DNA of 64,000 bases from Candidatus Uhrbacteria bacterium (lineage in GTDB: Bacteria; Patescibacteriota; Patescibacteriia; UBA9934): assembly GCA_903848275.1 (NCBI GenBank), contig CAINGB010000025.1, positions 4,713 through 68,712 on the forward strand, given 5' to 3'. The notes below the pieces were generated by a model, which saw only the letters and a list, made by a program, of their open reading frames with translations, was not told where the DNA came from and did no database searches. The position numbers and the translations under genes are program-made. This document shows, piece by piece, positions 1-37,995 of the stretch. Position 1 is the first letter of the stretch. The number at the start of each line of letters is the position of its first letter.

Positions 1-119
1 CCCCACCGACCACAAGACCACCGCCGAGTAAAAGCTGATTACGGCGAACTTGGAGCCACTTTTTTGGTGGTTCCGGCGGTAGACCTGGGGTGAAGTATTG
101 AGGTTCAAGAGCATTCATA

Positions 120-3100
120 TTAAAGGGCGCAGTAGTTGAATTTGATGTTGCTGATGTTGACTTCGCCTACGCCAGTGTAGGTGACGCGAAGAGGTAGATC
201 CTGCTCAGCTGTTTGATCGCAGACAAAACCTTCCGGCCAAGGGAGAGCTACGCCAGTGCCTTCGGTCACGACACCTGTGGTCGAAGTTGTAGTTGCACCG
301 TTTGAAGTTAGGAGTTCAACCACGATACCGGTAAAGGACGAAACAATGGAGCTGAAAGCGTCGGCGATTTCGGTTGAAGCGGCGCCATTGTAAGCGTAGT
401 CAAGGTGATTAGTAGTGTTGGGAATAGTGCCATCTGACGTCAGTGCTGTGAAACGCGCGGCGGAATTACTCGACCAGCCAGCGATAGTACGAATGAGGGT
501 TGATGAACTGGAAGGTAGAGGAGCGATAGTGTAGAGCTCGTAGCCGGCAGCTTTGATTGAGTCGGCATTCGTTGAGGCACTTGAAGGCGAAGAGGCTCGG
601 CTGGCCTGAACTAGAACGATAGCCTTGCGGAAGTTACTCGTGACAGAGGATGTACCATCCAGAAGATGCTGAGCTAGGTTTAGACCGCTGGCAGTATCGG
701 GTTTACCGCTAGTTGTTGTATAGAGATCAATCAAGCCGGCGAGCGTACTTTCGTCAGCCGCGCTGTAGAAAGTACTGGTAGCGACTGGCCCGGAACGAGG
801 CATGTAAACTAGGCCGATGTGGACGTTGTCGTTCTGACGGAAGAGGTCGGAAATAGCTGTGCGCAGATCAGCCTTCACATCATCCAGACTGCTCGACATG
901 GCGGTCGTTAGATCCGTCACGAAGACCACGTAAATATCTGGTGAAGCGACATTATCGAGCGAGACGTCGGCGGTGAGGGTGGCGCCCAAGCGACAGGCTG
1001 GGAAGGTGATGGTAGCGGCGTTTGGGAGAATGGAAGTGGTAGTGGCGGAATAAGAGTAGAGGTCGACGCTAGAGGACGAGGCGGCGCCTGGTTGGTTGTC
1101 GGTCAAGAGCATGGCGTCGGAGAGGAAGGTGTCAGGACAAGTGGATCCACAATCATTGGCACAGACTGGGAACTGGCAGTCGTTGCTCGAGCAGTCGGCG
1201 TCAGAGAGACAAGTAGCACTGAGGCCGCGGATTGGATCCGAACTGTCACCGCCGTTGCACTGACCGACGGTTTGACAGACTTCGGTTTCATTAGCGGCAG
1301 CAATTCCATCGGAGTTAAGGTCGACAGAGATGCGCTGACCATTAGAAGTGCAGGTGCCAGTACCGACATAGGTATAACGGGTACTGGTCATGGTCGAGTC
1401 CCAAGCCGTAACCGGTGAAGAACCATAAATGGCTTCGACAGCGGGAACATAGGAGTTTGGTAAATCGTAAGCGTCGCAGTACTCGCTACCGTTGGCAACA
1501 CCGTCGCCGCAGAATTCGCCGGAGAGGCTGGTGTATTTGCAGCTGACGGAACAAGCCGTACAGGTGGATTCGTAAGCGCTGGTACAACCGGCACCGTTGT
1601 TTGCGCCTTCGTCACACTGCTCGGTGTCGAGTTCGAGGTAACCATCGCCGCAGACGTTAGTTTTACACTGATTGGTACAGGTGTCGCCGGAGTTGGTGTT
1701 GCCGTCGTCGCATTCTTCGCCAGTATCAACCACGCCGTCGCCACAATTATTGAGAGCTTTGCAAGTAATGCCTTCGTAACCTGTTGAGGCATCCGCCCAG
1801 TTGCAGGTTCCTCCATGCGCACCATCATCGTCACAAACACGGGTACGATAGGTTTGATAAGTGTTATTTGAGCAAGTGCCGCCAGCGCCACAGTCGTCAT
1901 CAGTAGTACAGGCCTGGCCGATGAGGGTGGCGTCGTCGCTAAGCTGACAAACGGTAGTTATCGGACAAGCGGTGAATGGTCCATGAAGCTGAACGGTTTC
2001 GTTACTAACGCCACATTTTGCTTGAGCTTTAGCACGAGCCGATCTGACACCAGCCTGACAATCGGCGTCCAATAAAGCTGGGTCACAAGACTGACCTTCC
2101 ATGGTACCGGAATTATTGTTACAGATAGTGCCGGCGTAGGAATCTGGTGCACCATCACAAACTTCCCCACTATCAATCACGCCGTCGCCGCAGTAGCTAG
2201 CTGGGCCTTGGCAGTCCCAAGCACAGGTGTTGTTTGGGTTGGAGTTGTAGTCACCGTTAAGGTAGCCAGATCCAGACGAGCCACCACAATAACGAGTTGA
2301 GCCATCGGTGGAATCAGTGCGGCCACCGTAAGGACGAGAGTCGGTGGAGGCAGAAGTTGAGGAACAGTCGCAGGCTTCGCTACCAGCTAAGCTGCCGTCA
2401 CCGCAGTAGAAGGCATCGACCGTGAGTTTACAAGTTGAGCCGCAGTAACCATAACGACCGTTCAGGGAGCCGTCATCACATTCTTCGCTGGCGGCATCGA
2501 TGAGACCGTTGCCACAAGTGGCGGCGACGCAGGTAGCGGAAGTGTCGGCGATGAAGGCTGAACAGGTGCTGTTGCAAACTTGAGAGATGGTACCGTCAAG
2601 AACAGTGGTGTCCGTGGTCGTGCTGCAAGAAGTGGTGGTGCCGCCGCGCTCGCCGATTTCGCAAACTTCGCTAGCGTTAACCACACCGTCACCGCAGTTA
2701 CCGGTGCTGCCGTAGATGGTAGTGCCGTCGCAGAAGACGGCGGTGGTGAAGCCAGCGGCCGTGCTGAGAGGACTCGAAACTTGGTAAGTGACGGCGTCGG
2801 TAGCACTGGTGTCATAGTCGTAGTACCAGGCACCGGTAGCATATTCGAGGTCAGCGTAGAGGGTGTAGCTTGCGCTGCCGGCTGCTTTGTAGTGGTAAAC
2901 GTGGCTACCAGCTGGACAGATGTACTGACCGTTGGCTTGGTTGACGCAAGTAGCGCTGTCGTAGCTAGCGAGAGGAGCCGTACCGCAACCGAGGAAGGCG
3001 TTAAGAGGATCGGCGACTAAACTGCTGTTGGCCAAAGCGCCACCCAGCAAGTCTGTCCAAGAACCCCAGACGCTAGCGCCGAGGCCACGAACGAAGGTGC

Positions 3101-6100
3101 CGGAACCGAGAGTTGGCACGTCGGAAGTAGCGTAGGTGGAGCTGTAAGTGCTGACTTCACTACTGATAGTGCGGAGGTCGGCCAAGCGTTTAACGTCGCG
3201 AGTTAATTTTATTTTGTTATTAGCACAAGTTTCGCCGGTAGCACAGTCGGCGTCGGCCGTACAAGTCTCAGTCGTGTAAGCTGAGCCGTCGGAACAGAGA
3301 GCGACGTCGCTGACGTTGGTGGCGAAAGAGAGGTTGGCGAGGAGCTGGTCGTAGATGGCGATGGTAGAGTCGCTGGCGCCTTCGTTGTAGGAAATGACGT
3401 AGATATTTGGGTAGAGAGTAGCGCCACTTTGGTTGACGGCGGCGATATAGGTGGTACGGCCGTCTTTAACAGCTTGGAAGCCGTCGGCGGTAGTGACAGA
3501 TGGACTGCCCGAGAAACCTTGAGCTGTGTACCAGGCCAGCGGGCTCAAGTAGTCGGAGTTGGTGACCACACGGTAACCAATAGCGTCGCCGCTGCCGTCA
3601 TTAACTTCGAAGAGATACTCCTTGAGGATATTGTCGGTCGTCGAGTAGTCGGCGGCGTTTTGGACGGTCAGAGCTGGATAGTCGTCCGTGGTGTCGGTGG
3701 TAGCTCCGGCGTCGCGGCAGTAGAAGTCCGAGAAGTTCATCCAACCAGAGCCAATGACAGCGCCGGTAGCCAAACTAGCGTCGTCGCTCCAAGGGAAGAC
3801 GGTGGTTTTGACGTCGGGCCAAGTATTTTCACAGAGGAAAGCGACAACTTTTTGCGTGCCAGCAATAGACGTACCTTCAGAAGTACCGAATTGATCGTAG
3901 TCGATGGTGGCGGTGGCCAATACATTAGCGTCGCCGTTCTTGCCGACAGCGGCGACCGCGGCAGTATCGGTAGCGCTAGGATCTGTGCTGCCGGTAGCAG
4001 TCACGATGGTAGCATTCATGTCGTCGGTCCAAGCCCAATTCCACGAGTAAACGCCGGACAAAGATTCGATTGGTTCGCTGGTCGTGCCGTTAAAAGTGTA
4101 AGCGGTGGCTGTAAAGTCGTGGCTTTCCGTAGCTTGTGAGAAGTAGTTTGGACTATCGGTATTGCCGTCTGTGACAGCTACACTGTCCAAAGTACAGATT
4201 TCTGAACCAGTTGAGAACTCTTGAGTGGCGGCGCCATGTACGTTATACATCGCTACCCCGTCAACAGAATGGACGCCTGGATGTGAAGCGTCAGTAACGT
4301 CGCTGTCAGTCATGACTTCTAGAGTGTAGTGAGCGTTGGCTAGCAAGGGGACGTCGTAGTGCATGGTGACTTTATAGCTAGTTACGTCAGGTGATGTTTC
4401 GATAGCGGTTTGTGAATAGGAAGCGACAGGCACAACACAATCGCCGGCAGCAGCCTCTGCTGAACGACCGGTGAAGAGCTGACGGACGTTAAGCCAGCTA
4501 CGAGAATACCAAGGAAGGTGCGAACTAACAGCCATGGCGAGCGAAGTGTGATCGCTAGGACAGAGGTGGCCAGGAACGGTAGTTAAGTCGAGCTTAGCAA
4601 ACATGAGCGGTTGTGCGGTAGCTGGCGCGGTGGGTGCAGTCAAGAACGTCGAGAGATCCATCTCGCTGCTAAAGAGACCGGATAGCTCGGCATTGCGGCA
4701 GACATTGCGTCCGGTTGGATGCAGGCTGACTGTTGGGCGAGCTAGGCAGCAGTTATTAACGCCGACACCAGTGGCTAATGGCAAATGACAGTCGAGATCG
4801 CTAACAGCTGAGCAGGAGAGAGAATAGGTGGTAGGTGTGGCTGAAGTAGTGATGCCAGAAACTGGTTCCGTGACGTACATGGAAGCAATGGCCAGCTTGG
4901 TAGCTGGGTCGACTTCCTGCGCGGCGTGGAGGTCAATGGCGGCCAATTGAGTGTCGTCAATACGGCTATCGCCACCAGAGGATTCACAAGTAGCGTATTC
5001 ACCAAGGCCGACCGTGCCATCACCGCAGAATGATGGAGTAGTGTAGGAAGTAGAGGAGCCAAGAAGGGTGCAAGATGATGAGCAATACTGTTGACCGTCG
5101 CAGTCTTCACCGGCACCAGTGGCAGCTTGAGTAGTGGCACCATCGCCGCACTTGCTGGCCCAGAAAGCACCACCAGCCGAACCTTCACGGAGACAGGAAG
5201 CGGAACAACCGTCACCACTGACACTATTGCCGTCGTCGCAAGTTTCGTAGTTTGGAGTAATGGTGCCGTCGCCGCAACGAGCGCCACCGATGTCAGCTGA
5301 ACTGACCGTGCCTTCGTTCAAGCAGAGTGAAGAACAACCGTCACCATTGGCCACGTTGCCGTCGTCGCAGTCTTCACCGCCCTGAGTAGGGTCATAAGCA
5401 ATGTCGTTGTTGCCGCAAGTGGTGTCGACAGAACGGGAACCTTCGTCAAGACAAGTGGCGGAACAACCGTCACCGTTCTTGGTGTTGCCGTCGTCGCAAT
5501 CTTCGCCGCTGCCGTCGCCAGCGCGATCGAGATGACCGTTGCCACAAACTGGCGCCCAGGTTGGACCACCGTTGCTACCTTCACGGAGACAGGATGATGA
5601 GCAGCCGTCGGCATTGGCAGTATTGCCGTCTTCACATTCTTCGCCGTGCAGAGTGTCGATGTGTCCGTCGCCACAAATTGCGGCGTAGGCCTGGCTGCCG
5701 CCTGGTGTACAAAGTGAGGTACAGCCGGCTGCAATGTCGTTCTTATTGGTGTCGATAGTAGCGCTTGGCAGCCAGTTGGCGACGTTAATGGTGCTGCTGT
5801 GGCCATTGTCGGTCCAGTTATGGAAGCTCCAGTTGTAACCGGTAGTGGCCAACAGCTGACCGGAGGTGGAACAGGCGTCAGGTACGCCGTAGGCAGAGAC
5901 TGCAAAGTTCTGACGCTCGCCAACCGTGGATGCCGTAGCGGCGTCCGGAGTAACGGCCAAACGGCTGACAGCACAAACGTCGGTGCCAGATTTCACGCCA
6001 AAGGTCCAGGAATAATCACCGGAGTAATTAGTGCGGGTTAAAGCAACACCACTTGGGGTAGCGACGTCACCCGAGATGACTACACGGTAGAAGGTACCAG

Positions 6101-9100
6101 GAGTGAGGTTGGTGCCAGAAGGTAAGGCAATGTCAGCTTGTTTGCAGTGAGTCGAGGCGTCGCTGGCGCAATTGGAGGCGCTCACTGAATAGGCGCGCAC
6201 TTCGTCGCCAACGCCGACGTTACAGAGTTCATTAGGACAAGCGTAGAGTTTAACGGCACCAGGAGCGACAAGCGTCGCGGCGTCCATGTCGGTATTGAAG
6301 GAGGCACCAATTAAACTGTTACGGCAAGCGCCGTCACAGCTTGGCCAGAAATCGGCGACGTAAGGATCCGTAAAGTTAATTGTGAGCACAGCGTTACCGT
6401 CGACATTGCTGGCTTGCTCTTGGGCGGTGACGTCCGTGGTGCCTTCGGCGTTGGCCTGAACGAGAGTGCAATATGAGTTACCGCTGGCACAGGCGTCACT
6501 CGAAGCAAGACCAGCGATACTTGGATCTACTGTCCAGTTGTAGGTGTACTTACTAGCATCGAGAACGACACAGCCGTCGCTTGGTAAGGCGTTGAAGGTG
6601 TCGGTGTTGCCTTGGGCGTCGATGGTGGCGGTAGCCGGCGAAACTGAGACATTATTAACAGCACAGGAAGCACCGGTACTGGAGACTAGGAAATGCCAAG
6701 AGTAATCGGCAGCCATAGCAATGCCGCCAGGGGAAGACTTGGCCGCGGTGCTGACCGTAACCTTGTAACTCGCAGCGTTAGCAAAAGGTGTATTTGGGAC
6801 CCAGGTGAAGGTGGTTGGCGAGGAGTCGGAAATAGTGAGAAGGCCGTCGGCCGTAATGTCCGTGCCGCCAGTGCAAGCGTCGCTGCTACACTTTTCGATT
6901 TTGACGGCGTCGTCGATAGTGCCGCGGTTCATGAGTTCCGTGAATTCAGCGTAAACTACAGCCTGAGGGCAGACGTCCGTAGTGAAAGTAGAGTTTGGTA
7001 CAGCGCTGATGCGACCACCAGGGGTGAGAGTACACTCAGTGACAATCTCTGGAGTTGTCGGAATTTTACCGGTTGAGAAATACCACTGATAGGCCGCTGG
7101 ACCTGGTGGGAGGGTGGTGGTAGTGGCGGCGCCGTAAGTGAAGTTGAGGGTGTTACTCGTGGCACCAGCCGCTGAGGTGATCTGCACTGGTCCGGAGGTA
7201 GCGCCTACTGGAGCCTTGACGGTGACAGCGGTGCTATTCCAGGCGCTGGTTAAAGTAGCTGGGATAGCGGAAAAGAAATCAACTGCGCCTGTACTTGAAC
7301 CGAGACTGCCGGTGATAGTAACCGTGTCACCGGCGGCGCCAGTGTTGGGCGAGATGGAACAGATGCCAGGGCTAGGCGCATTAGAAGTGATAGTGAAATC
7401 AGTAAGAGCCGAAGAGGCGCCGCTTTGGGCGACGAGATAAATGGCAAAATCAGTACCGGCGACAACCGGATTACCGTTTTGATAACTAGCCGGTACAATG
7501 ACAGTAACCTGAGTGTCAGACCAATAATCTGAGCAGGCGGCCGGGAAATCGACGCTAGCCAAGGCTTTGTAACCAGAAGTTTTGTTTTCGAAAAAGACTT
7601 GGCCGATATTGGCACCAAAGTTGCTGCCGGTTAAGGTAATGTAGTCGCCAATGGCAGCTGAGCTTGGGCTGATACTGGCGATGATTGGGACGGTTGTTGT
7701 AGCGGTCGCCAGGCTGTAGAGAATAGTATTGGAAGCCACGCCGCCCACAGTAACGCCGACTGGGTAGCTACCGTCACGAGCCGAAGGAGCCGTAACGTTA
7801 AGGGAACTATCGCTCCAGCCGCTGTAAGAACCGGCCGCGTTAGTACCGAAAGCAACAGTTGAGGTGCTTTGGGCGTCGCCGAAGTCTAAACCAGACAAAA
7901 CCACGGCGTCAGTTGGTGCGCCAGAGGCTGGCAACAGTGAACAAAGTTTAGGATGAACGACGTCGTTCACCACGAAGTCGTCGAAAATTTGACCGTAGTC
8001 GTCGTTACTCGAGTCACTGAGAGGCGTAGTAGCGCCAGTTGTGACCGTAATTGGGCCAGTCACAGCACCAACTGGAACCATCACAATCAAGCCGGTAGAA
8101 GACCAGGTGCTGCAAGATGGGCTGAGAGCGACGACTGTGCCGCCGTTAGCTGCGGTAAAGGTCACGGTTGGTTGTGTGTCGCCGAAGCCAACGCCGTCGA
8201 TAGTCACGAAGGTGCCAACAGCACCGGAGAGTGGCGAGATGCCAGTAATTTCTGGCAAGGCGGTACAAATGCCGTCCACACAGCTATCGCTTGGGCCGCA
8301 GTCGGCGTCAGAAGTACAGATGCTGCCAGAACAAGCGCCGCAGTAGTCGACGTTAGCGCTATCGCCACCACAGTTAAGGCCAGTTTCACCATGCGAGGTG
8401 TCGATAACGTCGTTAAAGCACCAAGGGCCACGGGCCGTAACATGAATGGTGTCGTCGCTCGTGTTGCCGGCGATGTCGGTGACGGTGGTGGCTAGCTTGT
8501 AGCTAGTGCTGTTGACGAGAGCTGTGGTATCCCAGTTAGTGGCGATGGTGGTGTCAGAAAGATCGGGGCCGGTGGCACCAACGGAGTCGAACTGCACGTC
8601 TTCTGCGCTAAAACTGGCGTCCGCCACTTGGCTGTCGTCTGTGGCATGGACTTGGACGAGGGCAGAAGAACCAGATTCCACGCTGCCGCTTGGGATAGTG
8701 ATGACGGCGGTTGGGTTAGCGACGTCGACGAGGTTGCCGGTGGTGAAGGAGGAAGTACAGCTGGTGGTGGTACAGACAAGCGTAGTACCGTTGGTGCTTT
8801 TTACGGCCGTGGAAACACTGACCGAGAAGGCAGTGTCTGCATCAAAACAGAAACGGGTGTCATTTGGTGATGGACAAGCGGCGTTAGGCCGGAAGCTGGC
8901 ACTATTACTGCTAACCGTGATGGTGCCGTCGATGACTGCGCCGCTAGCGGTGTTTTTGACGACTAGATTATTAGCAAGAGTAGCGGCGTCGAGAGTCTTG
9001 GAGAAAGTAACTTTAAGGAGGACGTTGCGGATGGCGACCGGGCCGTCTGGTGAATAGTCCGTCACCGAGAAGGCTGAGGTGCTGCTACTACCGCCGAATC

Positions 9101-9527
9101 CCCCGCCGCTGCCGTTACCACTGCTGGTGTTGCCGCCGCCAGCGCCAGTGGCGTTAAGCAACGCGGAAAGGATGAAGCTGGCAATCGCGAAGGAGAGCAG
9201 GATGATGGCCAGGCCAATGACGCCACGAATGAGGATTTTCTTGGCGCGTTCTAATTTTTCTTCGTTGCCGGCCGCGGTCATCCAAGTAAAGCCACCGTAG
9301 AGGACGATAAGTACTGAGAGAATACCGAGAACGCCAATGACCACGCGGATGATGCGAGCGATGATGATTTTAGGGTCTTCCGCCGTGAGGCCGGAGGCAG
9401 CGCCAACGTCGGCCAGGCTACTGGTGACTTGAGCTAGGAGGTGTGGAGCGTGCAAAAATACGCCAGCCGCAATGAGGCCAAGGACAGAAGGAAGAACGTA
9501 TTTAAGGCGGAACCAACGCATAGCCAA
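120..9527 (-). CDS. Giant (3135 aa) secreted or surface-anchored multidomain protein. N-terminal TM segment plus TrbC/VirB2-like pilin-type domain, then a Gly/Ser linker, Ig/IPT-like repeats, at least 12 Myxococcus-type Cys-rich repeats and a possible vWA-like C-terminus.
   Basis: One uninterrupted 9.4 kb ORF. N-terminus: hydrophobic segment, then ...LYGGFTWMTAAGNEEKLERAKKILIRGVIGLAIILLSFAIASFIL (pilin-like amphipathic/TM helix pair). Repeats CGDGHIDTLHGEECEDGNTANADGCSSSC, CGNGHLDRAG..EDCDDGNTKNGDGCSATC and others match the C-G-D-G-x-E-x-C-D-D-G-N-x-DGC-x-C pattern. IPT-like ITGISPLSGAVGTFVTIDGVGFG. C-terminal DIYVVFVTDLTTAMSS.. segment is vWA-like. Confidence 0.85.
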   Translation of the reverse strand: MAMRWFRLKYVLPSVLGLIAAGVFLHAPHLLAQVTSSLADVGAASGLTAEDPKIIIARIIRVVIGVLGILSVLIVLYGGFTWMTAAGNEEKLERAKKILIRGVIGLAIILLSFAIASFILSALLNATGAGGGNTSSGNGSGGGFGGSSSTSAFSVTDYSPDGPVAIRNVLLKVTFSKTLDAATLANNLVVKNTASGAVIDGTITVSSNSASFRPNAACPSPNDTRFCFDADTAFSVSVSTAVKSTNGTTLVCTTTSCTSSFTTGNLVDVANPTAVITIPSGSVESGSSALVQVHATDDSQVADASFSAEDVQFDSVGATGPDLSDTTIATNWDTTALVNSTSYKLATTVTDIAGNTSDDTIHVTARGPWCFNDVIDTSHGETGLNCGGDSANVDYCGACSGSICTSDADCGPSDSCVDGICTALPEITGISPLSGAVGTFVTIDGVGFGDTQPTVTFTAANGGTVVALSPSCSTWSSTGLIVMVPVGAVTGPITVTTGATTPLSDSSNDDYGQIFDDFVVNDVVHPKLCSLLPASGAPTDAVVLSGLDFGDAQSTSTVAFGTNAAGSYSGWSDSSLNVTAPSARDGSYPVGVTVGGVASNTILYSLATATTTVPIIASISPSSAAIGDYITLTGSNFGANIGQVFFENKTSGYKALASVDFPAACSDYWSDTQVTVIVPASYQNGNPVVAGTDFAIYLVAQSGASSALTDFTITSNAPSPGICSISPNTGAAGDTVTITGSLGSSTGAVDFFSAIPATLTSAWNSTAVTVKAPVGATSGPVQITSAAGATSNTLNFTYGAATTTTLPPGPAAYQWYFSTGKIPTTPEIVTECTLTPGGRISAVPNSTFTTDVCPQAVVYAEFTELMNRGTIDDAVKIEKCSSDACTGGTDITADGLLTISDSSPTTFTWVPNTPFANAASYKVTVSTAAKSSPGGIAMAADYSWHFLVSSTGASCAVNNVSVSPATATIDAQGNTDTFNALPSDGCVVLDASKYTYNWTVDPSIAGLASSDACASGNSYCTLVQANAEGTTDVTAQEQASNVDGNAVLTINFTDPYVADFWPSCDGACRNSLIGASFNTDMDAATLVAPGAVKLYACPNELCNVGVGDEVRAYSVSASNCASDASTHCKQADIALPSGTNLTPGTFYRVVISGDVATPSGVALTRTNYSGDYSWTFGVKSGTDVCAVSRLAVTPDAATASTVGERQNFAVSAYGVPDACSTSGQLLATTGYNWSFHNWTDNGHSSTINVANWLPSATIDTNKNDIAAGCTSLCTPGGSQAYAAICGDGHIDTLHGEECEDGNTANADGCSSSCLREGSNGGPTWAPVCGNGHLDRAGDGSGEDCDDGNTKNGDGCSATCLDEGSRSVDTTCGNNDIAYDPTQGGEDCDDGNVANGDGCSSLCLNEGTVSSADIGGARCGDGTITPNYETCDDGNSVSGDGCSASCLREGSAGGAFWASKCGDGATTQAATGAGEDCDGQQYCSSSCTLLGSSTSYTTPSFCGDGTVGLGEYATCESSGGDSRIDDTQLAAIDLHAAQEVDPATKLAIASMYVTEPVSGITTSATPTTYSLSCSAVSDLDCHLPLATGVGVNNCCLARPTVSLHPTGRNVCRNAELSGLFSSEMDLSTFLTAPTAPATAQPLMFAKLDLTTVPGHLCPSDHTSLAMAVSSHLPWYSRSWLNVRQLFTGRSAEAAAGDCVVPVASYSQTAIETSPDVTSYKVTMHYDVPLLANAHYTLEVMTDSDVTDASHPGVHSVDGVAMYNVHGAATQEFSTGSEICTLDSVAVTDGNTDSPNYFSQATESHDFTATAYTFNGTTSEPIESLSGVYSWNWAWTDDMNATIVTATGSTDPSATDTAAVAAVGKNGDANVLATATIDYDQFGTSEGTSIAGTQKVVAFLCENTWPDVKTTVFPWSDDASLATGAVIGSGWMNFSDFYCRDAGATTDTTDDYPALTVQNAADYSTTDNILKEYLFEVNDGSGDAIGYRVVTNSDYLSPLAWYTAQGFSGSPSVTTADGFQAVKDGRTTYIAAVNQSGATLYPNIYVISYNEGASDSTIAIYDQLLANLSFATNVSDVALCSDGSAYTTETCTADADCATGETCANNKIKLTRDVKRLADLRTISSEVSTYSSTYATSDVPTLGSGTFVRGLGASVWGSWTDLLGGALANSSLVADPLNAFLGCGTAPLASYDSATCVNQANGQYICPAGSHVYHYKAAGSASYTLYADLEYATGAWYYDYDTSATDAVTYQVSSPLSTAAGFTTAVFCDGTTIYGSTGNCGDGVVNASEVCEIGERGGTTTSCSTTTDTTVLDGTISQVCNSTCSAFIADTSATCVAATCGNGLIDAASEECDDGSLNGRYGYCGSTCKLTVDAFYCGDGSLAGSEACDCSSTSASTDSRPYGGRTDSTDGSTRYCGGSSGSGYLNGDYNSNPNNTCAWDCQGPASYCGDGVIDSGEVCDGAPDSYAGTICNNNSGTMEGQSCDPALLDADCQAGVRSARAKAQAKCGVSNETVQLHGPFTACPITTVCQLSDDATLIGQACTTDDDCGAGGTCSNNTYQTYRTRVCDDDGAHGGTCNWADASTGYEGITCKALNNCGDGVVDTGEECDDGNTNSGDTCTNQCKTNVCGDGYLELDTEQCDEGANNGAGCTSAYESTCTACSVSCKYTSLSGEFCGDGVANGSEYCDAYDLPNSYVPAVEAIYGSSPVTAWDSTMTSTRYTYVGTGTCTSNGQRISVDLNSDGIAAANETEVCQTVGQCNGGDSSDPIRGLSATCLSDADCSSNDCQFPVCANDCGSTCPDTFLSDAMLLTDNQPGAASSSSVDLYSYSATTTSILPNAATITFPACRLGATLTADVSLDNVASPDIYVVFVTDLTTAMSSSLDDVKADLRTAISDLFRQNDNVHIGLVYMPRSGPVATSTFYSAADESTLAGLIDLYTTTSGKPDTASGLNLAQHLLDGTSSVTSNFRKAIVLVQASRASSPSSASTNADSIKAAGYELYTIAPLPSSSSTLIRTIAGWSSNSAARFTALTSDGTIPNTTNHLDYAYNGAASTEIADAFSSIVSSFTGIVVELLTSNGATTTSTTGVVTEGTGVALPWPEGFVCDQTAEQDLPLRVTYTGVGEVNISNIKFNYCAL

Positions 9528-9530
9528 AAA

Positions 9531-11408
9531 CTAAGGTGAAACAGGCAAGAGGTCGCAAGTAGCAGACTGAGCGTGGCCGTTGCAGCAGGATGGGCTAGCA
9601 GGATTGACGGCGCAGGCGGCACCGCTAGCGTCTGGACCGTTGGCAGGGACGTAACAGTTTTGGTATTGGTTTTCGATGCCCTGACTGGCCAGAACGCCGT
9701 AGAGATAGGTCTTGCCATCGGTTGAGGCTAAGAAAGTACCGTGTTGAATAGTGGTTTGAGTTTGGGTGGCGGCTTGGTTGACTGGATCGATAACTTCGGC
9801 ACCGGTCTTGTCGAGGCTGACACTACGTGGCAAGAACCACATTTCGTGACTACCGCCGGTTGAAGTCTCTTTGTTGCTCATGCTGACGTTGGCACTGGTG
9901 AGAGACAAGGTACGCATGATGTCGGAGAACGTGATAGTGACGATCTGGTCGAGTGCTTGATCTTCGCCGAGGATGTTGGGAGCGATTGTCGAAATGGTTG
10001 GCCCGACCAAGTTAATGTCGCCCGAGGTTGAGAAGGTCCAATCCGGGAAGTCATCACCAGCTGTGCCGTCCTGGTTACCGTCCAAACTGTTGGCAGCGGC
10101 GTCGGTGATACCGTCATAAGGGAAGCTGTCAGCTTGTGGCGGACTCTTGGTGGTGGTAGCAGCGGCGATTTTGATTGTTAGGTCGTCGTTAGCCGGTAGA
10201 CAGTAGATGGTGGCGCCGCACGAGTTGGTACCGCAGGCATCTGTCGAGGTGAAGGTGATGGTTTTATAGCCGTTGCTCGTTTGGTAGGTACCAGCTTGAG
10301 TAGTGTGGCTGGCGCCGCTAACGGTTTGGATGTTGGAGAAACCGCTAGTTGCCGTGCGAGTACCAGTTGAGGATGTTGGGTCGATGGCTTCATTGAAGGT
10401 GACCTCCACAGAAATGTTACGGTCGAAGGTTTGATTTTGTGCTGGTACGACCGAGACCACGTAAGGTGGGGTCAGATCGATGGTGGTGCCAACGGTGAAG
10501 GACCACTCGTAGCCACCGGAATAGACGCCAGTAAAGGCATCGGCGTTGGCGGCGGTTTTAATGGCGGTATTAAGCGAGACGGTGTAGAGCGTGTTGTCGG
10601 TGGCGGAACCGAGATAACCCTGGGGGATGAAAGTGAAAGTTTTGAGATCGTCAGTAAAATAAACGTCGACGTCGGTGCGGACAGCTTCAAGACCAGTGCT
10701 TGGGTAAACAGAGGAAATAGCAACCATGGAGCTATTAATGAGGGTGCCAGCCGCGGTGTCGTCGGTGATGTCGGTGCCGGTGCCGTTAGTGTTATAGCCG
10801 GTAATAAATGAGGAAATGTCCATTGGCTCAGCAAAAGTGACCATGATGTGGGTGTTGCGGGCGATGTCCGTGGCGTTGCGCTCCGGGTAGTGGTCACGGA
10901 GAATGCCGGCGCCGAGGGAACCAGATAGTGCTTCCACGGAGACGACACCGTTACTCGAGGTATTGTTGCCGGTTCCAGAGCCCGCGCCGAGGGCGTTCAA
11001 AATGAAGGTAGCGATACCGTAAGCGCCGAGAACGATGATGATGCCGATGGTGCCATTAATGAGCGTGCTTTTGGCGCGCTTGATTTTATCTTCGCTACCG
11101 CCGGCAGTCATCCAGAGGACGCCGGCGTAGATAATGAGAATAAGGAATACGACACCGAGCACACCGAGAACGACCGAAATAATGGTACCGATGATAGTTA
11201 ACAGATCTGTATTCGCAAAACCGGCTGTAGCACCGACGTCGGTGAGAGCAGTGGTAGCCGATTGAGCTAAAGCGAAGTGCGGATGAGTAACCACAAAGGC
11301 CGCCAGAGCGGCAGCAAATGTGGTGAATAACGAAGCTCGTTTCAAGATAGAAGAATAGACCACAGGAAAGATGCAAACTGCAGAACCAATGCTCACAGTA
11401 TACAACAC
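9531..11408 (-). CDS. 625-aa surface protein, paralogous at its N-terminus to the giant protein (TM segment plus TrbC/VirB2-like pilin-type domain), with Ig-like repeats and a Cys-rich C-terminus.
   Basis: N-terminus ...IIYAGVLWMTAGGSEDKIKRAKSTLINGTIGIIIVLGAYGIATFILNAL parallels the giant protein's N-terminus. It lies 3 nt upstream of the giant gene on the same strand, so an operon is likely. Confidence 0.8.
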   Translation of the reverse strand: MLYTVSIGSAVCIFPVVYSSILKRASLFTTFAAALAAFVVTHPHFALAQSATTALTDVGATAGFANTDLLTIIGTIISVVLGVLGVVFLILIIYAGVLWMTAGGSEDKIKRAKSTLINGTIGIIIVLGAYGIATFILNALGAGSGTGNNTSSNGVVSVEALSGSLGAGILRDHYPERNATDIARNTHIMVTFAEPMDISSFITGYNTNGTGTDITDDTAAGTLINSSMVAISSVYPSTGLEAVRTDVDVYFTDDLKTFTFIPQGYLGSATDNTLYTVSLNTAIKTAANADAFTGVYSGGYEWSFTVGTTIDLTPPYVVSVVPAQNQTFDRNISVEVTFNEAIDPTSSTGTRTATSGFSNIQTVSGASHTTQAGTYQTSNGYKTITFTSTDACGTNSCGATIYCLPANDDLTIKIAAATTTKSPPQADSFPYDGITDAAANSLDGNQDGTAGDDFPDWTFSTSGDINLVGPTISTIAPNILGEDQALDQIVTITFSDIMRTLSLTSANVSMSNKETSTGGSHEMWFLPRSVSLDKTGAEVIDPVNQAATQTQTTIQHGTFLASTDGKTYLYGVLASQGIENQYQNCYVPANGPDASGAACAVNPASPSCCNGHAQSATCDLLPVSP

Positions 11409-15642: not shown

Positions 15643-16275
15643 CTAGAAATTATATTGGGGAGCGGCGAAGGTGCCAAGGCGGTCGAGCGGGAAACCACGA
15701 ATCCAGACGCGGCCAATGAAGTTCTCAAACGGGATGGTACCAATGATGCGCGAGTCGAGGCTGGCGCCGCGGTTGTCGCCCATGACGAAGTATTGGCCAG
15801 CTGGCACAACAACTTTTTGTGGGTTGCCGGTTGTTTGTGTTTCGTAGCTTTCGTCGAGCACGATGCCATTTGGATGCTCTGTGTTACTGATAGTGATTTT
15901 ACCATCTTTCACTTCTACTGTTTCGCCGGGTAAACCAATGATGCGTTTAATATAGTATTGGTCGCTCTCGCCGACTGCACCAGTGGCCGTGTGCTGCGGT
16001 GGATGAAAGACGATGACTTCGCCACGTACCGGAGCGCGCAAGCGGAAGGACATTTCGTCGACGATGAGATACTCCTTATCATGGAAGGTTGGATCCATGC
16101 TGGCACCTTTGACGACGAACGGTTGAATGAGGAAATAACGAACGATGAAAATGATAACCACGGCGACGATGATGATTTTGCCGATTTCGATCAAGAAAGC
16201 GACGACGGGGTTCTTGAAGAAGCTTCGGCCTGGCACTGGTCCCGCTCCGGCTGTCTCTGGAGTTAGCTCATTCAT
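15643..16275 (-). CDS. lepB: Signal peptidase I
   Basis: VKGASMDPTF (Ser box), YIKRIIGLPGETV, and FVMGDNRGASLDSR (Lys/box E region). Confidence 0.85.
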   Translation of the reverse strand: MNELTPETAGAGPVPGRSFFKNPVVAFLIEIGKIIIVAVVIIFIVRYFLIQPFVVKGASMDPTFHDKEYLIVDEMSFRLRAPVRGEVIVFHPPQHTATGAVGESDQYYIKRIIGLPGETVEVKDGKITISNTEHPNGIVLDESYETQTTGNPQKVVVPAGQYFVMGDNRGASLDSRIIGTIPFENFIGRVWIRGFPLDRLGTFAAPQYNF

Positions 16276-16373
16276 AGGGAAATATGCAAAATTACTCACA
16301 GTATAGCACAAAATAGGAAAAAATCAAGTATGGCATGATTACAAAAAAACAGCCACCGAAGTGACTGATTTTT

Positions 16374-35043: not shown

Positions 35044-36357
35044 CTACGGTCTTAAGCGTTGAACATCCCGAGGGAAAATCGTCGCCTCCTTAACGTTCGC
35101 GAGGCCCAAGATGTTTTGGGTGAGGCGTTGCAGGCCAATAGCGAAGCCGCCTTCGGGGGGAATACCGAATTTGTGCATGGTCAAGTAGTCCTCAAAATCG
35201 GCCGGGTTCAAGCCTTTCTCCACGATGCGGGCGAGCTGTTCGTCGTAGCGGTTAATGCGCATACCGCCGGAAGTGATTTCACTCCCCCAGCCGATGACGT
35301 CGAAAGTGAGGGTGTTGTTCGGGTCGGTTGGATCCACCTTGGCATAGAACGGGCGTTTGGCTGGCGTCCAGTCAGTGACGAAGACAAAGCCGCAGTTGTG
35401 GTGCTTGGGGGCCCATTCTTTGGAGAGCCACTTTTCGGCCGCTGGTGAGAGGTCTGGCTCCCCTGTTTCGTCGACACCGGCTTCGTCGCGGTAAGCGGCC
35501 AGGGCGTCGGCCAGCTTGATACGAGGGAAACGCTCGCCGAGTGGTGGGAGAACGGTTTCGAGAAGTTTTAATTCGACGGTGCAATCACGCTCGACAGAGG
35601 CAACCATCTGGCGAATGGCGGCTTCTTCGATGTCCATGAGCTCGTCGATGCTATCGATGAAACCAGCTTCAAACTCGAGTTGGTTGAACTCGGTCAAGTG
35701 ACGTGAGGTAGCGAATTTTTCGGCGCGGAAGGAGTAGCTCAAACCGTAAACGCCTTCGTAGACGCCCATGGTGATTTGCTTGTAGAGCTGGGCGGACTGG
35801 GTGAGCGTGGCTTCGCGGCCGTAATAGTCGACCTTGAAGAATTCGGCGCCACCTTCACTAGCGGCACCAGCCAGCACGGGGAAGAAAATTTCGGTGTAGC
35901 CCTGAGCTTCCATGAAAGCGCGGTAACCGTGAACCAAAGCGGCCTGCACACGGAAGATGGCGCGCTGCTTAGGGTGACGGAGAGTGACCACGCGGTTGTC
36001 GAGGAGGGTGTCCAAGTTGACGTCGAGCACAGGCTTGCCGATTTCGACTGGCACGACGTCGACAACTGGTGAGAGAATTTCCAAAGTCTCAACTTGCATT
36101 TCGACTTCTTTAATCAACGGATCCTTCGACTTCTTTTCCACGATGAGGCCGGTGACGGCTACGACGGTTTCCACCTGGAGGCCGTGGAGTTGGGTAAGTT
36201 GCTCGGCGTTAAGGACGGTTTGCGCGAGGCCGGAACGGTCGCGGATGATGGCGAAGCCGAACTTGCTCATGTCGCGGAGGGTGTTGAGCCAGCCTTTGAT
36301 GGTGACGACTTCACCTAGATGGCTTGGGAGATCCTTTACTAGAGTTCTGGTATTCAT
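35044..36357 (-). CDS. aspS: Aspartate--tRNA ligase, archaeal/eukaryal type (possibly non-discriminating)
   Basis: Motif 2 FRAEKFATSRHLTEF. Motif 3 GGFAIGLQRL. SGGMRINRYD is AspRS-like. Start taken at MNTRTLVKDL. Confidence 0.75.
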   Translation of the reverse strand: MNTRTLVKDLPSHLGEVVTIKGWLNTLRDMSKFGFAIIRDRSGLAQTVLNAEQLTQLHGLQVETVVAVTGLIVEKKSKDPLIKEVEMQVETLEILSPVVDVVPVEIGKPVLDVNLDTLLDNRVVTLRHPKQRAIFRVQAALVHGYRAFMEAQGYTEIFFPVLAGAASEGGAEFFKVDYYGREATLTQSAQLYKQITMGVYEGVYGLSYSFRAEKFATSRHLTEFNQLEFEAGFIDSIDELMDIEEAAIRQMVASVERDCTVELKLLETVLPPLGERFPRIKLADALAAYRDEAGVDETGEPDLSPAAEKWLSKEWAPKHHNCGFVFVTDWTPAKRPFYAKVDPTDPNNTLTFDVIGWGSEITSGGMRINRYDEQLARIVEKGLNPADFEDYLTMHKFGIPPEGGFAIGLQRLTQNILGLANVKEATIFPRDVQRLRP

Positions 36358-36383
36358 AGGTCGTATTGGTCCAATAGGACCTA

Positions 36384-37688
36384 TTAAGGAGTTGAGCGAT
36401 TTAGCATGCGGGGGAAGGCGATGGTTTCGCGGATGTGGTGGTTGCCGGTGATCCAACGGACGGTGCGCTCGAGACCGATGCCGAAGCCGCTGTGCTGTAC
36501 GGCGCCGTACTTGCGGGTGTTCAAGTACCAGTCATATTCGGCCAAGGGGTAGCCACGATCCACAATTTCCTTTTTGAGCGCGTCGTAGCTTTCTTCACGC
36601 TGACTACCGCCGATAATTTCGCGGCCTTCTTCTGGCGCGATGAGGTCCGCATTCCTGGCGCGGAGGACGCCAGCTTCATCGACGTAACGCTTCATGTAGA
36701 AGGCTTTGACAGCGGCTGGATAATCCTCGATGAAAATTGGCAGTTGATATTTGTTACCGAGGTAGATTTCTTCCTCCGTGCCCATGTCGTCCAAGGGATC
36801 CACGTCGGCGATGCCGTCGGCGATCAAGATGGCTTTGGCTTCCGCGTGCTTGAGGTGGACGAATGGTTCGTCGACTAGTTTTTGTAAGAGCGTGGTGTCG
36901 CGCTCGAGGATTTTGAGCTCGGGGGCGCAGAATTTGAGGACGTCGCCGACGATGCGCTTGACCATCCGTTCCTGCACAGCCATGTTGTCCACTTGGTCGT
37001 GGAAGGCCATTTCCGCGTCCATCATCCAGAGTTCCGAGAGGTGGTGGCGCGTCTTGCTCTTTTCCGCGCGGAAGACGGGGCCGAAGTCGTAAACTTTGCC
37101 GAAGCTCATGATGCCCGCTTCGCTGTAAAGCTGGCCCGATTGCGAGAGATACATGGGATTGCCGTAGTAGTCGACGCTGAAGAGCTGGGTGGTGTCTTCG
37201 CAGCTAGTTGGCTGCAAGATTGGGGTGTCAAAGCGGATGAAACCGGCTTCGTGGAAGAATTGCTCGATGCTGAAGAAGACTTGGTCGCGAATGCGGAGTG
37301 TGGCCCAGGGCGTGGCGCTGCGGAGGTACAAGTCGCGGTTGTCGAAGAGGAAGTCCGGGCCGTGTTCTTTGTTGGCGATTGGGTAATCTTCTGGAGCGAG
37401 CGCGATGATGGCGAAGGCGGTGCCTTGGATTTCGAAGCCGCTTGGCGCACGAGGCTCAGCTTTAACAAGACCGGTGACGGTGACGGAAGACTCGAGGGTC
37501 AGCGACTTGAGGGCGTCCCATTGCTCGGCTGGCAAATCCCCCGCCGAGTAGACGACTTGGACACGGCCGCTGCCGTCGCGGAATTGGAGGAAGAAGATTT
37601 TGCCGCTGCTCCTGAAGTTGTAGGCCCAGCCTTGAAGAGTAATGGTTTCACCGACGAGGGTTGAGAGTTGGGAGATTGAGGGAGTCAT
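36384..37688 (-). CDS. asnS: Asparagine--tRNA ligase
   Basis: FRAEKSKTRHHLSEL, GGSQREE, DWYLNTRKYGAVQHSGFGIGLER (AsnRS-type motif 3). Start taken at MTPSISQLS. Confidence 0.75.
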   Translation of the reverse strand: MTPSISQLSTLVGETITLQGWAYNFRSSGKIFFLQFRDGSGRVQVVYSAGDLPAEQWDALKSLTLESSVTVTGLVKAEPRAPSGFEIQGTAFAIIALAPEDYPIANKEHGPDFLFDNRDLYLRSATPWATLRIRDQVFFSIEQFFHEAGFIRFDTPILQPTSCEDTTQLFSVDYYGNPMYLSQSGQLYSEAGIMSFGKVYDFGPVFRAEKSKTRHHLSELWMMDAEMAFHDQVDNMAVQERMVKRIVGDVLKFCAPELKILERDTTLLQKLVDEPFVHLKHAEAKAILIADGIADVDPLDDMGTEEEIYLGNKYQLPIFIEDYPAAVKAFYMKRYVDEAGVLRARNADLIAPEEGREIIGGSQREESYDALKKEIVDRGYPLAEYDWYLNTRKYGAVQHSGFGIGLERTVRWITGNHHIRETIAFPRMLNRSTP

Positions 37689-37706
37689 ATAGAGATATTG
37701 TTTTGA

Positions 37707-37847
37707 GTTGGTCACGTTTTGTGACCAACTGGCTACCTGGGGACAATCTGTCCCCAGGTAGCCATCGTAAGAATAGTTTTTTTCGTTCTCAAGTGGTGAC
37801 AACCTGTCACCACTTGACCTCAGTCTGTCACAGTTTGTGACAGACTG
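37707..37847. repeat. Four tandem perfect hairpins between the T-box terminator and the asnS start codon. Stems are 9-13 bp, all built around GTCAC/GTGAC or TGTCCCC cores.
   Basis: + strand: gttggtcac gtttt gtgaccaac. ggctacctggggaca atc tgtccccaggtagcc. caagtggtgaca acc tgtcaccacttg. cagtctgtcaca gtt tgtgacagactg. Confidence 0.7.
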
Positions 37848-37995
37848 AAAAATAAAATTCACCCGTACAGAACGACGAGTTAGGCTCATCATTTTGTAAG
37901 GGCGAATCTTCATTAGATCGCGGTGCCACCTCACTTTAGGCTTTTAAGCAATTGTGCGCGCTGGTCGTTAAGCAGCGGGAGGATTGTCAGGCCTG
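37847..37995 (-). promoter_or_regulatory. Candidate T-box riboswitch leader of asnS. It has a promoter (TTGCCA-17-TATAGT), a short specifier hairpin with AAC (Asn) in its loop, a T-box sequence GGUGGCACCGCG that forms a canonical antiterminator (A1 6 bp, 7-nt bulge UGGCACC, A2 6 bp), and an overlapping 13-bp terminator plus U-tract.
   Basis: Minus strand reads cgcug CUUAACGAC cagcg ... aaGUGAGG UGGCACC GCGAUC uaaugaa GAUUCGC CCUUAC a ... terminator attcgcccttaca...tgtacgggtgaat tttattttt. UGGC is complementary to GCCA (G73 discriminator of tRNA-Asn). Confidence 0.55.

Follow-up and report, generated by a model that had tools for sequence, protein, structure and literature searches.

Two putatively surface-displayed proteins with T4SS_pilin-type N-terminal modules in a conserved operon of Candidatus Uhrbacteria

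Background

What does a module of the pilus-subunit type do at the head of a protein of more than 3,000 residues? The question is raised by two adjoining genes in a 64,000-nucleotide stretch of DNA (hereafter the window) from a Candidatus Uhrbacteria bacterium (GCA_903848275.1, contig CAINGB010000025.1, positions 4,713–68,712), which encode a protein of 625 amino acids (aa) and a giant protein of 3,133 aa with related N-terminal domains. A first-pass annotation of the sequence had taken the pair for surface proteins with VirB2/TrbC-like pilin domains, likely to form an adhesin or appendage and perhaps relevant to host attachment. The best explanation, to which we give about an even chance, is that the two proteins are membrane-anchored and surface-displayed, and that their genes form the heart of an envelope operon conserved on the chromosomes of Uhrbacteria. 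Both are apparently held in the membrane by the pilus-subunit-type module, and their domain content suggests roles in adhesion and host attachment.

Much of the diversity of uncultured bacteria belongs to the Patescibacteria, the majority of which are presumed to live in attachment to other cells. VirB2-like pilins are widespread among them and occur in arrays of 2–11 pilin genes (PMC12102498). In the one genetically tractable Patescibacteria species a type IV secretion system (T4SS) and its VirB2-like pilins are essential, with function unknown (PMC10633639, PMC11665869, PMC12857230).

Results and Discussion

A pair of genes conserved across the clade

The two genes and the parts of them that carry the related domain are located as follows.

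9531..11408, minus strand: gene 1, a 625-aa pilin-headed immunoglobulin-like (Ig) protein from the scan of open reading frames (ORFs), GTG start at 11408
11265..11408, minus strand: gene 1 leader and Sec signal peptide, residues 1–48, ending ...HFALA↓Q (hydrophobic segment, conserved A-x-A↓Q)
10971..11264, minus strand: gene 1 pilin-like module, residues 49–146 (acidic N-terminal segment, transmembrane helix TM1, loop WMTAGGSEDKIKRAKS, second transmembrane helix TM2)
120..9521, minus strand: gene 2, the giant pilin-headed surface protein, 3,133 aa from the ATG at 9521
9147..9521, minus strand: gene 2 signal peptide (residues 1–30, ending ...HLLA↓Q) and pilin-like hairpin (residues 31–125)

Both ORFs stand where the first-pass annotation had put them. 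The GTG at 11408 is also the start of the database protein P0001; an alternative, the in-frame TTG at 11345, would give a protein of 604 aa with a more typical signal peptide. Counted from its first TTG (9527), the giant ORF has 3,135 codons (120..9527, minus strand). From the ATG at 9521, which lies 9 nt past the stop of gene 1, it encodes 3,133 aa, and public assemblies list the identical protein at this length.

Several lines of evidence establish the giant ORF as genuine. The window agrees base for base over 12.6 kb with the ENA scaffold ERZ18648440, and the gene calls on ERZ27313442 and ERZ1426593 include the identical 3,133-aa protein too (three other metagenome assemblies in all). In an 86%-identical relative, on a contig of 1.09 Mb, the orthologue has 3,125 aa, and orthologues in more distant relatives have 3,085 and 3,067 aa. 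The Nei-Gojobori method applied to the giant and its 86%-identical relative gives 0.146 nonsynonymous (dN) and 1.35 synonymous (dS) substitutions per site, a dN/dS of ~0.11 that is approximate because dS is saturated. In a further relative (locus L008), the repeats within the giant gene are just 64–75% identical at the DNA level. The repeat-rich sequence and a few relatives with a shorter second ORF might suggest repeat misassembly, a fused gene call or a pseudogene, but with the identical giant in four independent assemblies, 53 full-length colinear orthologues, dN/dS of ~0.1 along the whole gene and repeats this divergent, the probability of an artefact, which the first-pass annotation had named as a way to be proved wrong, is negligible.

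Relatives of the 625-aa protein were found in 361 species-level genomes (one genome was scanned per species), whose informative titles are mostly Candidatus Uhrbacteria or Patescibacteria group. A homologue search with the protein gave at least 652 clusters of ~600 aa that are 48–100% identical. Adjacency was counted in the best 80 loci, and in 78 of these a pilin-Ig ORF of ~600 aa is directly followed by a second ORF with the same N-terminal domain. Where no contig end cuts it, this second ORF measures 3,056–3,527 aa in 53 loci and is shorter in seven (778–2,681 aa), where a frameshift, a truncation or a real variant is possible. The 53 complete giant orthologues (3,056–3,523 aa, from other species-level genomes), which were gathered via the neighbouring pilin-Ig gene and its loci, are colinear with the window protein. 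At least 80% of them conserve 121 of its 128 cysteines, in keeping with a protein that is extracellular and oxidised. Across the clade, identity is ~40–55% for both the pilin-Ig protein and the giant.

The pilin-like N-terminal module

The N-terminal layout described by the first-pass annotation, a transmembrane segment followed by GGFTWMTAAGNEEKLERAKKIL or AGVLWMTAGGSEDKIKRAKSTL and then a hydrophobic helix, is seen in both translations, where each of these stretches lies between two hydrophobic helices. When all six-frame ORFs of the window were searched with phmmer, the domain was found only in gene 1 and the giant, which match each other with E~1e-23 (4e-23 for the giant against the N-terminal domain of gene 1).

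The Pfam family T4SS_pilin (PF18895, curated gathering cut-off 26.6 bits) matches the 625-aa protein at residues 70–136 with 29.9 bits, covering model positions 6–71 of 71. The giant scores 25.2 bits, just under the cut-off. Its N-terminal domain matches that of the 625-aa protein (E 4e-23), so that it is a member by transitivity, and giant orthologues bear precomputed PF18895 hits. These matches support T4SS_pilin membership, directly for the 625-aa protein and transitively for the giant, and give profile support to the pilin-like domain that had been proposed from the letters.

Among NCBIfam models, the best N-terminal match of both proteins is NF045849, the Mbov_0395 pilin-like family of a Mycoplasma integrative and conjugative element (ICE), with E-values of 1.2e-8 and 8.9e-6. 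Nearly the whole 80-position model is spanned, and the scores (34.5 and 25.3 bits) fall short of its cut-off of 40. The proteins from Mycoplasma also differ from the pair in being small and ICE-encoded. The match fits the reported kinship of the patescibacterial T4SS with MPF-FATA systems of monoderm bacteria (PMC12102498).

Hydropathy analysis, which had been proposed as a check on signal peptide and membrane topology, finds exactly three hydrophobic segments per protein, a signal peptide and two long helices, and none in either protein beyond the N-terminal 145 residues. The loop between the two helices has four lysine or arginine residues, as against 0–1 in the flanks (0 in those of gene 1), and by the positive-inside rule this would place the loop in the cytoplasm and both ends of the mature hairpin outside. 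Alignments of both families conserve an A-x-A↓Q signal-peptidase site, at which cleavage is predicted, the motif G-x-x-W-M-T-A-G-G where helix 1 ends, K-A-K within the loop, and ...A-T-G closing helix 2. In the AlphaFold2 model of the 625-aa protein, helices 69–100 and 106–143 form a hairpin that is followed by a disordered Gly/Ser linker; modelled alone, the N-terminal domain has three helices. The structure prediction that the first-pass annotation had called for yields a helical hairpin within the 625-aa model.

The module is also the most constrained part of the giant, with a dN of 0.018 against 0.146 gene-wide in the comparison with the 86%-identical relative. Its conservation suggests that it is probably more than a greasy anchor.

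The connection to canonical VirB2 and TrbC proteins is looser. Like TrbC/VirB2 (PF04956; Agrobacterium VirB2), the pair has a long signal peptide, predicted to be cut before Gln, a short N-terminal segment, a TM1 that ends in G-x-x-W-M, and a TM2 followed by a short Gly-rich tail. Unlike the pair, VirB2 is small, cyclised and encoded beside virB3 and virB4, and the profile match is weak. PF04956 does not match either window protein at E<=0.1, although precomputed hits to it exist for eight homologues of the 625-aa protein. Alignment of the N-terminal domain profile with six annotated plasmid VirB2/TrbC proteins (hhalign) gives 59 colinear columns that include the W-M motif, as a weak match (P=0.0017, probability 15%). 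Fold searches with the N-terminal domain model against solved structures return generic helical hairpins only and are uninformative, and a PDB profile sequence search gave only spurious matches to designed 'Pizza' proteins, which we rejected. Membership of T4SS_pilin stands, and the link to canonical VirB2/TrbC, on which the earlier label 'VirB2/TrbC-like pilin' drew, is weak.

Formats of the T4SS_pilin family

A profile search with the N-terminal domain found 62,317 cluster representatives at E<=1e-3. Three formats occur among the best 150 of these, on which the following breakdown rests. The first is the free pilin of 106–156 aa, to which most single-domain matches belong. The second consists of 2–17 tandem hairpins. 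The third has a single N-terminal hairpin and a tail of 487–812 aa or ~3,000–3,300 aa (487–3,271 aa overall). The earlier suggestion that a pilin-like domain heads large proteins of Patescibacteria is borne out by this third format.

The pair belongs with these long-tailed proteins. Neither protein is small or ends after helix 2; ~480 residues follow in the 625-aa protein and ~3,000 in the giant, and the Gly/Ser linker of both begins where the free pilins of the family stop.

Tandem-hairpin 'polypilins' are frequent in the public library, with 2–17 copies (P0129, P0127, P0130, P0131 and others). P0129 (1,775 aa) has 17 hairpins and conserved cysteines in the connecting loops of each. We know of no description of such proteins.

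Architecture of the putative extracellular regions

Beyond the module, the regions predicted to be extracellular comprise the following parts.

9534..10916, minus strand: gene 1 ectodomain, residues ~165–625, with four beta-sandwich (Ig-like/Big_5) domains and a Cys-rich C-terminus
8256..9146, minus strand: gene 2 Gly/Ser linker, two Ig-like domains and a small Cys-knot, residues ~126–422, read from the sequence
7122..8258, minus strand: gene 2, four IPT/TIG domains, residues ~422–800 (Pfam TIG)
5682..7064, minus strand: gene 2, Big_5-type Ig-like region, residues ~820–1280 (Big_5 1.4e-7 and 0.022 on separate chunks)
4962..5684, minus strand: gene 2, Cys-rich acidic repeat cluster 1, residues ~1280–1520, 6–7 copies (hidden Markov models and regular expression)
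2706..4961, minus strand: gene 2, central region without a family match, residues ~1521–2272 (~750 residues)
1422..2705, minus strand: gene 2, Cys-rich acidic repeat cluster 2, residues ~2273–2700, 7 copies with insertions (DUF4215 7.7e-9 on a chunk)
447..929, minus strand: gene 2, VWA domain, residues ~2865–3025, with its metal ion-dependent adhesion site (MIDAS) degenerate here
123..446, minus strand: gene 2, C-terminal domain of ~108 residues, ending ...NYCAL (motifs dYay...lPwP..F.Cd...yCap across orthologues)

In the 625-aa protein, Pfam finds Big_5 in two stretches (1.7e-14). AlphaFold2 with an 81-sequence alignment models it with a pLDDT of 82, above 90 over most of the ectodomain, and places four confident beta-sandwich domains after the linker. 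Foldseek matches of the ectodomain model are to the Ig arrays of LdtMt2 (3e-8) and to the S-layer proteins SbsC, Sap, EA1 and that of N. maritimus; the best of these are generic Ig arrays with low TM-scores (0.14–0.16). A sortase signal (LPXTG, hydrophobic segment, charged tail) is absent from both proteins, which end in ...CDLLPVSP (gene 1) and ...NIKFNYCAL (giant); the C-terminal domain of the giant lacks any other kind of sorting signal as well.

The giant carries the Ig and IPT domains that had been read from its sequence. TIG is detected in four stretches (2e-19, 69.8 bits, cut-off 20.9), and PDB sequence matches for this region are the IPT domains of cyclodextrin glucanotransferases and an IPT/TIG protein. 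Big_5 is found further on, and over residues ~126–422 Pfam matches are weak, while the homologous fragment P0121 bears Big_5 and PF17957. The estimate of at least 12 Cys-rich repeats also holds: a regular expression anchored on CG[DN]G counts 12, and one variant (TCGNND...) brings the number to 13. By motif, the two clusters span residues 1283–1520 and 2276–2700. The profile scores are 6.4e-41 for TIGR02232 (137.9 bits in six stretches, cut-off 20.8) and 2.7e-18 for DUF4215 (66.4 bits, cut-off 27).

The central region contains a block, K.K..RD..RL.D...SGTFVR..S.W.SW...DPLN, with 22 invariant columns among the orthologues. The block (window 2706–3500, minus strand, residues ~2085–2285) also has YHYR ... 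LEY. The idea that residues ~2100–2260 form a head domain of helix plus sheet, as in type IV pilins, found no Pfam or PDB sequence support and was not adopted; the fetched loci hold no type IV pilus (T4P) pilin genes for comparison.

At the other end of the giant, the proposed VWA-like domain is recovered by its Pfam model with 31.0 bits (3.7e-7) in the whole protein and 36.4 bits (7.7e-9) on a C-terminal chunk (cut-off 23.8). The domain evolves faster than any other part of the giant; compared with the 86%-identical relative, dN reaches 0.55 and identity is 47–51%, against 70–97% elsewhere. The MIDAS (DxSxS ... T ... D) is not intact in the window protein, which reads DLTTAM / SGKPDT / VQASRA. 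At least 80% of the 53 orthologues keep D.S.SM, T and DG, and the retention of these residues in most of the clade supports ligand binding at the tip.

Operon and genomic context

The window begins within a larger unit. On the scaffold identical to it, the gene order is hflX, pilin-Ig, giant, genes for proteins of 272, 223 and 352 aa, ybeY, dgkA and ftsA. Spacers of 1–10 nt within the five-gene block suggest co-translation. The last three genes of the operon lie at L005:12791–15354 on the identical scaffold, mostly beyond the start of the window, into which only the beginning of the third gene reaches:

1..118, minus strand: start of gene 3, the first 39 codons of the 272-aa protein, with an ATG 1 nt past the stop of the giant

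The unit first marked out at 120–11408 is thus sound as a pair and too short as an operon. A single membrane helix and calcium-binding TSP3 repeats of the bacterial type occur in each of the 272-, 223- and 352-aa proteins, the first of which also has 12 cysteines. A homologue of gene 3 lies directly 3' of the giant in 40 of 46 testable loci.

The remaining genes of the window have housekeeping roles. They encode HflX, HisRS, signal peptidase I, Der, DprA, a Mur ligase, TopA, RelA/SpoT, ParAB, ScpAB, aminoacyl-tRNA synthetase, RecO, RuvX, an ABC transporter and SecY.

Several further features were observed around the operon. Some relatives have an extra pilin-domain ORF upstream of the pilin-Ig gene, of 117 and 133 codons in L077 and L087 and of 254–266 codons in L069, L078, L080 and L081; the distance to pilin-Ig is ~100 nt or less in L069, L077, L078 and L087 and ~1.1–1.2 kb in L080 and L081. 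The signal peptidase I gene (15643–16311, minus strand) lies ~4 kb upstream of the pair, a proximity that is kept in the distant loci L001, L006 and L007. The A-x-A↓Q sites of both proteins are of the kind that signal peptidase I would cut, and the synteny may be coincidental.

Locus L008, from a metagenome-assembled genome (MAG) of Candidatus Uhrbacteria (GCA_943359325.1), has a diversity-generating retroelement between hflX and pilin-Ig (7076–9901) without a counterpart in the window. It comprises a bAvd gene, a reverse transcriptase gene and a 125-nt pair of template and variable repeats in which 14 of 14 mismatches fall at template adenines. We considered the pilin genes as its target and rejected this, since the variable region makes up the C-terminus of another, separate ORF of 275 aa (7076–7903).

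In the window itself, 35044–37934 (minus strand) holds two adjoining class II aminoacyl-tRNA synthetase paralogues of 470 and 516 aa, both with tRNA-synt_2 and OB anticodon-binding domains, whose longest ORFs overlap by ~70 nt. Many MAG records with the operon (L009, L012, L014 and others) are titled 'uncultured Gammaproteobacteria bacterium', which looks like a placeholder or mislabel.

Proposed role of the pair

Under the explanation that we prefer, both proteins would be exported by Sec, with the signal peptide cut at the conserved A-x-A↓Q, and the VirB2-type two-helix hairpin would keep each of them in the cytoplasmic membrane. The short acidic N-terminus and the C-terminus would face outward and the lysine-rich loop (..EKxxKAKK..) the cytoplasm. 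After its Gly/Ser linker, the 625-aa protein would present a stalk of four Ig-like domains. The giant would present ~3,000 residues of Ig and IPT domains, 13 disulfide-bonded acidic repeats, the central block, the distal VWA domain and a beta domain. Together with the TSP3 proteins, the pair would most likely build a long surface complex, a fibre or spike stabilised by calcium, and the VWA domain at its far end would attach to a ligand carried by another cell or a surface. That the hairpin is so strongly constrained argues for specific contacts, with the other hairpin, with free pilins or with pilin-handling machinery. The module may thus dock the two proteins to each other or, alternatively, to machinery of the T4SS type, and one of these is its most likely role. 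The sequence analysis shows that the genes are real, what domains and topology signals they encode, and how far they and their order are conserved; signal-peptide cleavage, surface exposure, the shape of a fibre, adhesion and any contact with a T4SS are inferred.

Several observations weigh against this explanation. The first-pass annotation had proposed that T4SS or T4P machinery be sought nearby, and none is present among the scanned ORFs of the 64-kb window; T4SS components are absent from the 10-kb flanks of the relatives as well. Proximity to a T4SS cluster is not strictly required of a T4SS_pilin protein, because a pilin gene lies near virB4 in only 1,135 of 1,948 assemblies (PMC12102498). 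Homology of the module to canonical VirB2 is weakly supported by the comparisons above. The giant evolves no faster than the pilin-Ig protein, which is unusual for an adhesin that determines host specificity and would fit a purely structural role in the envelope as well. The degenerate MIDAS means that metal-dependent ligand binding may have been lost in this organism. Finally, the central ~750 residues of the giant (1521–2272) have no significant Pfam or PDB sequence match.

The strongest alternative takes the two proteins for true pilus subunits: a T4SS would extract both hairpins from the membrane and polymerise them with small free VirB2-like pilins, so that the Ig stalk and the giant ectodomain are covalently displayed on a conjugative-type pilus or at its tip or base. 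The N-terminal domain keeps the pilin motifs of the family and is under the strongest constraint in both genes, and the extension starts where free pilins (106–156 aa) end. An extra small pilin gene lies just upstream in some relatives (L077, L087). Short C-terminal fusions to F-pilin are tolerated and surface-exposed. Within the essential T4SS gene cluster of Southlakia, the pilin array is itself essential (PMC10633639, PMC12857230). On the other hand, a tail of 500–3,000 residues on each subunit is sterically incompatible with a homopolymeric helix of the VirB2 type, which leaves only sparse or terminal incorporation conceivable. Neither virB4 nor virB6 lies beside the operon in the window or in the flanks of the 80 loci, where only housekeeping genes were seen, and there has been no direct sighting of any patescibacterial T4SS pilus (PMC12857230). 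We regard this alternative as unlikely, though one to be taken seriously. The specific proposition that the hairpin is a functional pilin and that a T4SS pilus incorporates both proteins, with a covalent 3,000-residue adhesin and a 480-residue Ig stalk, is slightly more doubtful.

The pair could also be an envelope scaffold or S-layer without any part in cell binding, with the ~600-aa Ig protein as a membrane-anchored lattice or spacer and the giant as a strut. In favour of such a role, almost the whole clade has the operon, the loci examined contain one copy of it, its neighbours are housekeeping and cell-division genes (ftsA and ftsZ among them), and conservation is moderate and even along the proteins. 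The Ig array resembles those of the S-layer proteins that Foldseek returned, but these matches are generic, with the low TM-scores given above. The Pfam scan found no SLH, CWB or other cell-wall-binding domain, and a VWA domain with conserved MIDAS, IPT/TIG domains and Cys-rich repeats are typical of ligand-binding adhesins. A scaffold is accordingly an improbable reading.

Very improbable is a secreted or T4SS-delivered effector or polymorphic toxin, with the pilin head as targeting signal and the C-terminal part released or injected: effector delivery has been proposed for the patescibacterial T4SS, whose role is unknown (PMC11665869), and processing might in principle occur at the ...ATG boundary that follows TM2, but Pfam, NCBIfam and PDB sequence searches of the giant found no toxin, effector, enzyme or immunity-like domain, its C-terminus is not polymorphic but orthologous and colinear throughout the clade, and its 128 cysteines, most of them conserved, speak for a protein oxidised outside the cell and against a translocated effector.

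Relation to known systems

The membrane-anchored, surface-displayed pair that we prefer shares features with several described systems. Type IV pilus minor pilins with large C-terminal domains offer an analogy, in that a pilin membrane helix places an extracellular domain on the filament or at its tip. They are an unrelated class of pilin, with a single N-terminal helix and processing by prepilin peptidase, and the class III signal peptide that they have is not present in the pair.

Like the VirB2-like pilins of Patescibacteria (Southlakia epibionticum ML1, Nanosynbacter lyticus TM7x), both proteins have a signal peptide followed by two hydrophobic helices that a short charged loop joins. The tandem paralogous genes, ~47% identical, also echo the arrays of divergent pilins in these bacteria (PMC12102498). 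In contrast to those pilins, which are small, end after helix 2 and are in many cases encoded near virB4, the module here continues into fused ectodomains (480 and 3,000 residues), and the pair adjoins hflX with no T4SS gene in 64 kb.

The Cys-rich repeats had been called typical of Myxococcus. They are not specific to it, since large Cys-rich extracellular proteins with weak similarity to Myxococcus repeats have already been reported from Peregrinibacteria of the Candidate Phyla Radiation (CPR; Anantharaman et al. 2016, PMC4736985). The giant resembles these proteins in its size (their mean is 1,655 aa), its signal peptide, its Myxococcus-type repeats and the attachment role proposed for them. 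The Peregrinibacteria proteins are encoded in strain-variable gene clusters and have no described pilin-like anchor, whereas the giant, headed by a pilin hairpin and with VWA at its tail, is one orthologue throughout the clade.

A literature search, with most subscription journals outside its coverage, returned no description of a pilin module fused to large ectodomains or of this operon. The pair combines a patescibacterial VirB2-like pilin with a CPR Cys-rich giant surface protein, in a form that is clade-wide and syntenic.

Conclusions

The family PF18895 is used in three ways, as free pilins, as tandem 'polypilins' and as heads of large surface proteins, which bears on how pilin counts in genome surveys are to be read. 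For the Uhrbacteria, the meaning of the pair depends on what the module does. If it is an anchor only, the main surface fibre of these bacteria has been identified. If the module is truly assembled by a T4SS, this would suggest one job for that T4SS, the building of an adhesive filament; we know of no T4SS with such a filament-plus-adhesin design. Should the two proteins be pilus subunits, they would be candidates for what physically joins Uhrbacteria to their hosts, carried on a conjugative-type filament of a single-membrane bacterium. A clade-wide, syntenic operon in 361 species-level genomes offers a concrete, testable handle on these questions.

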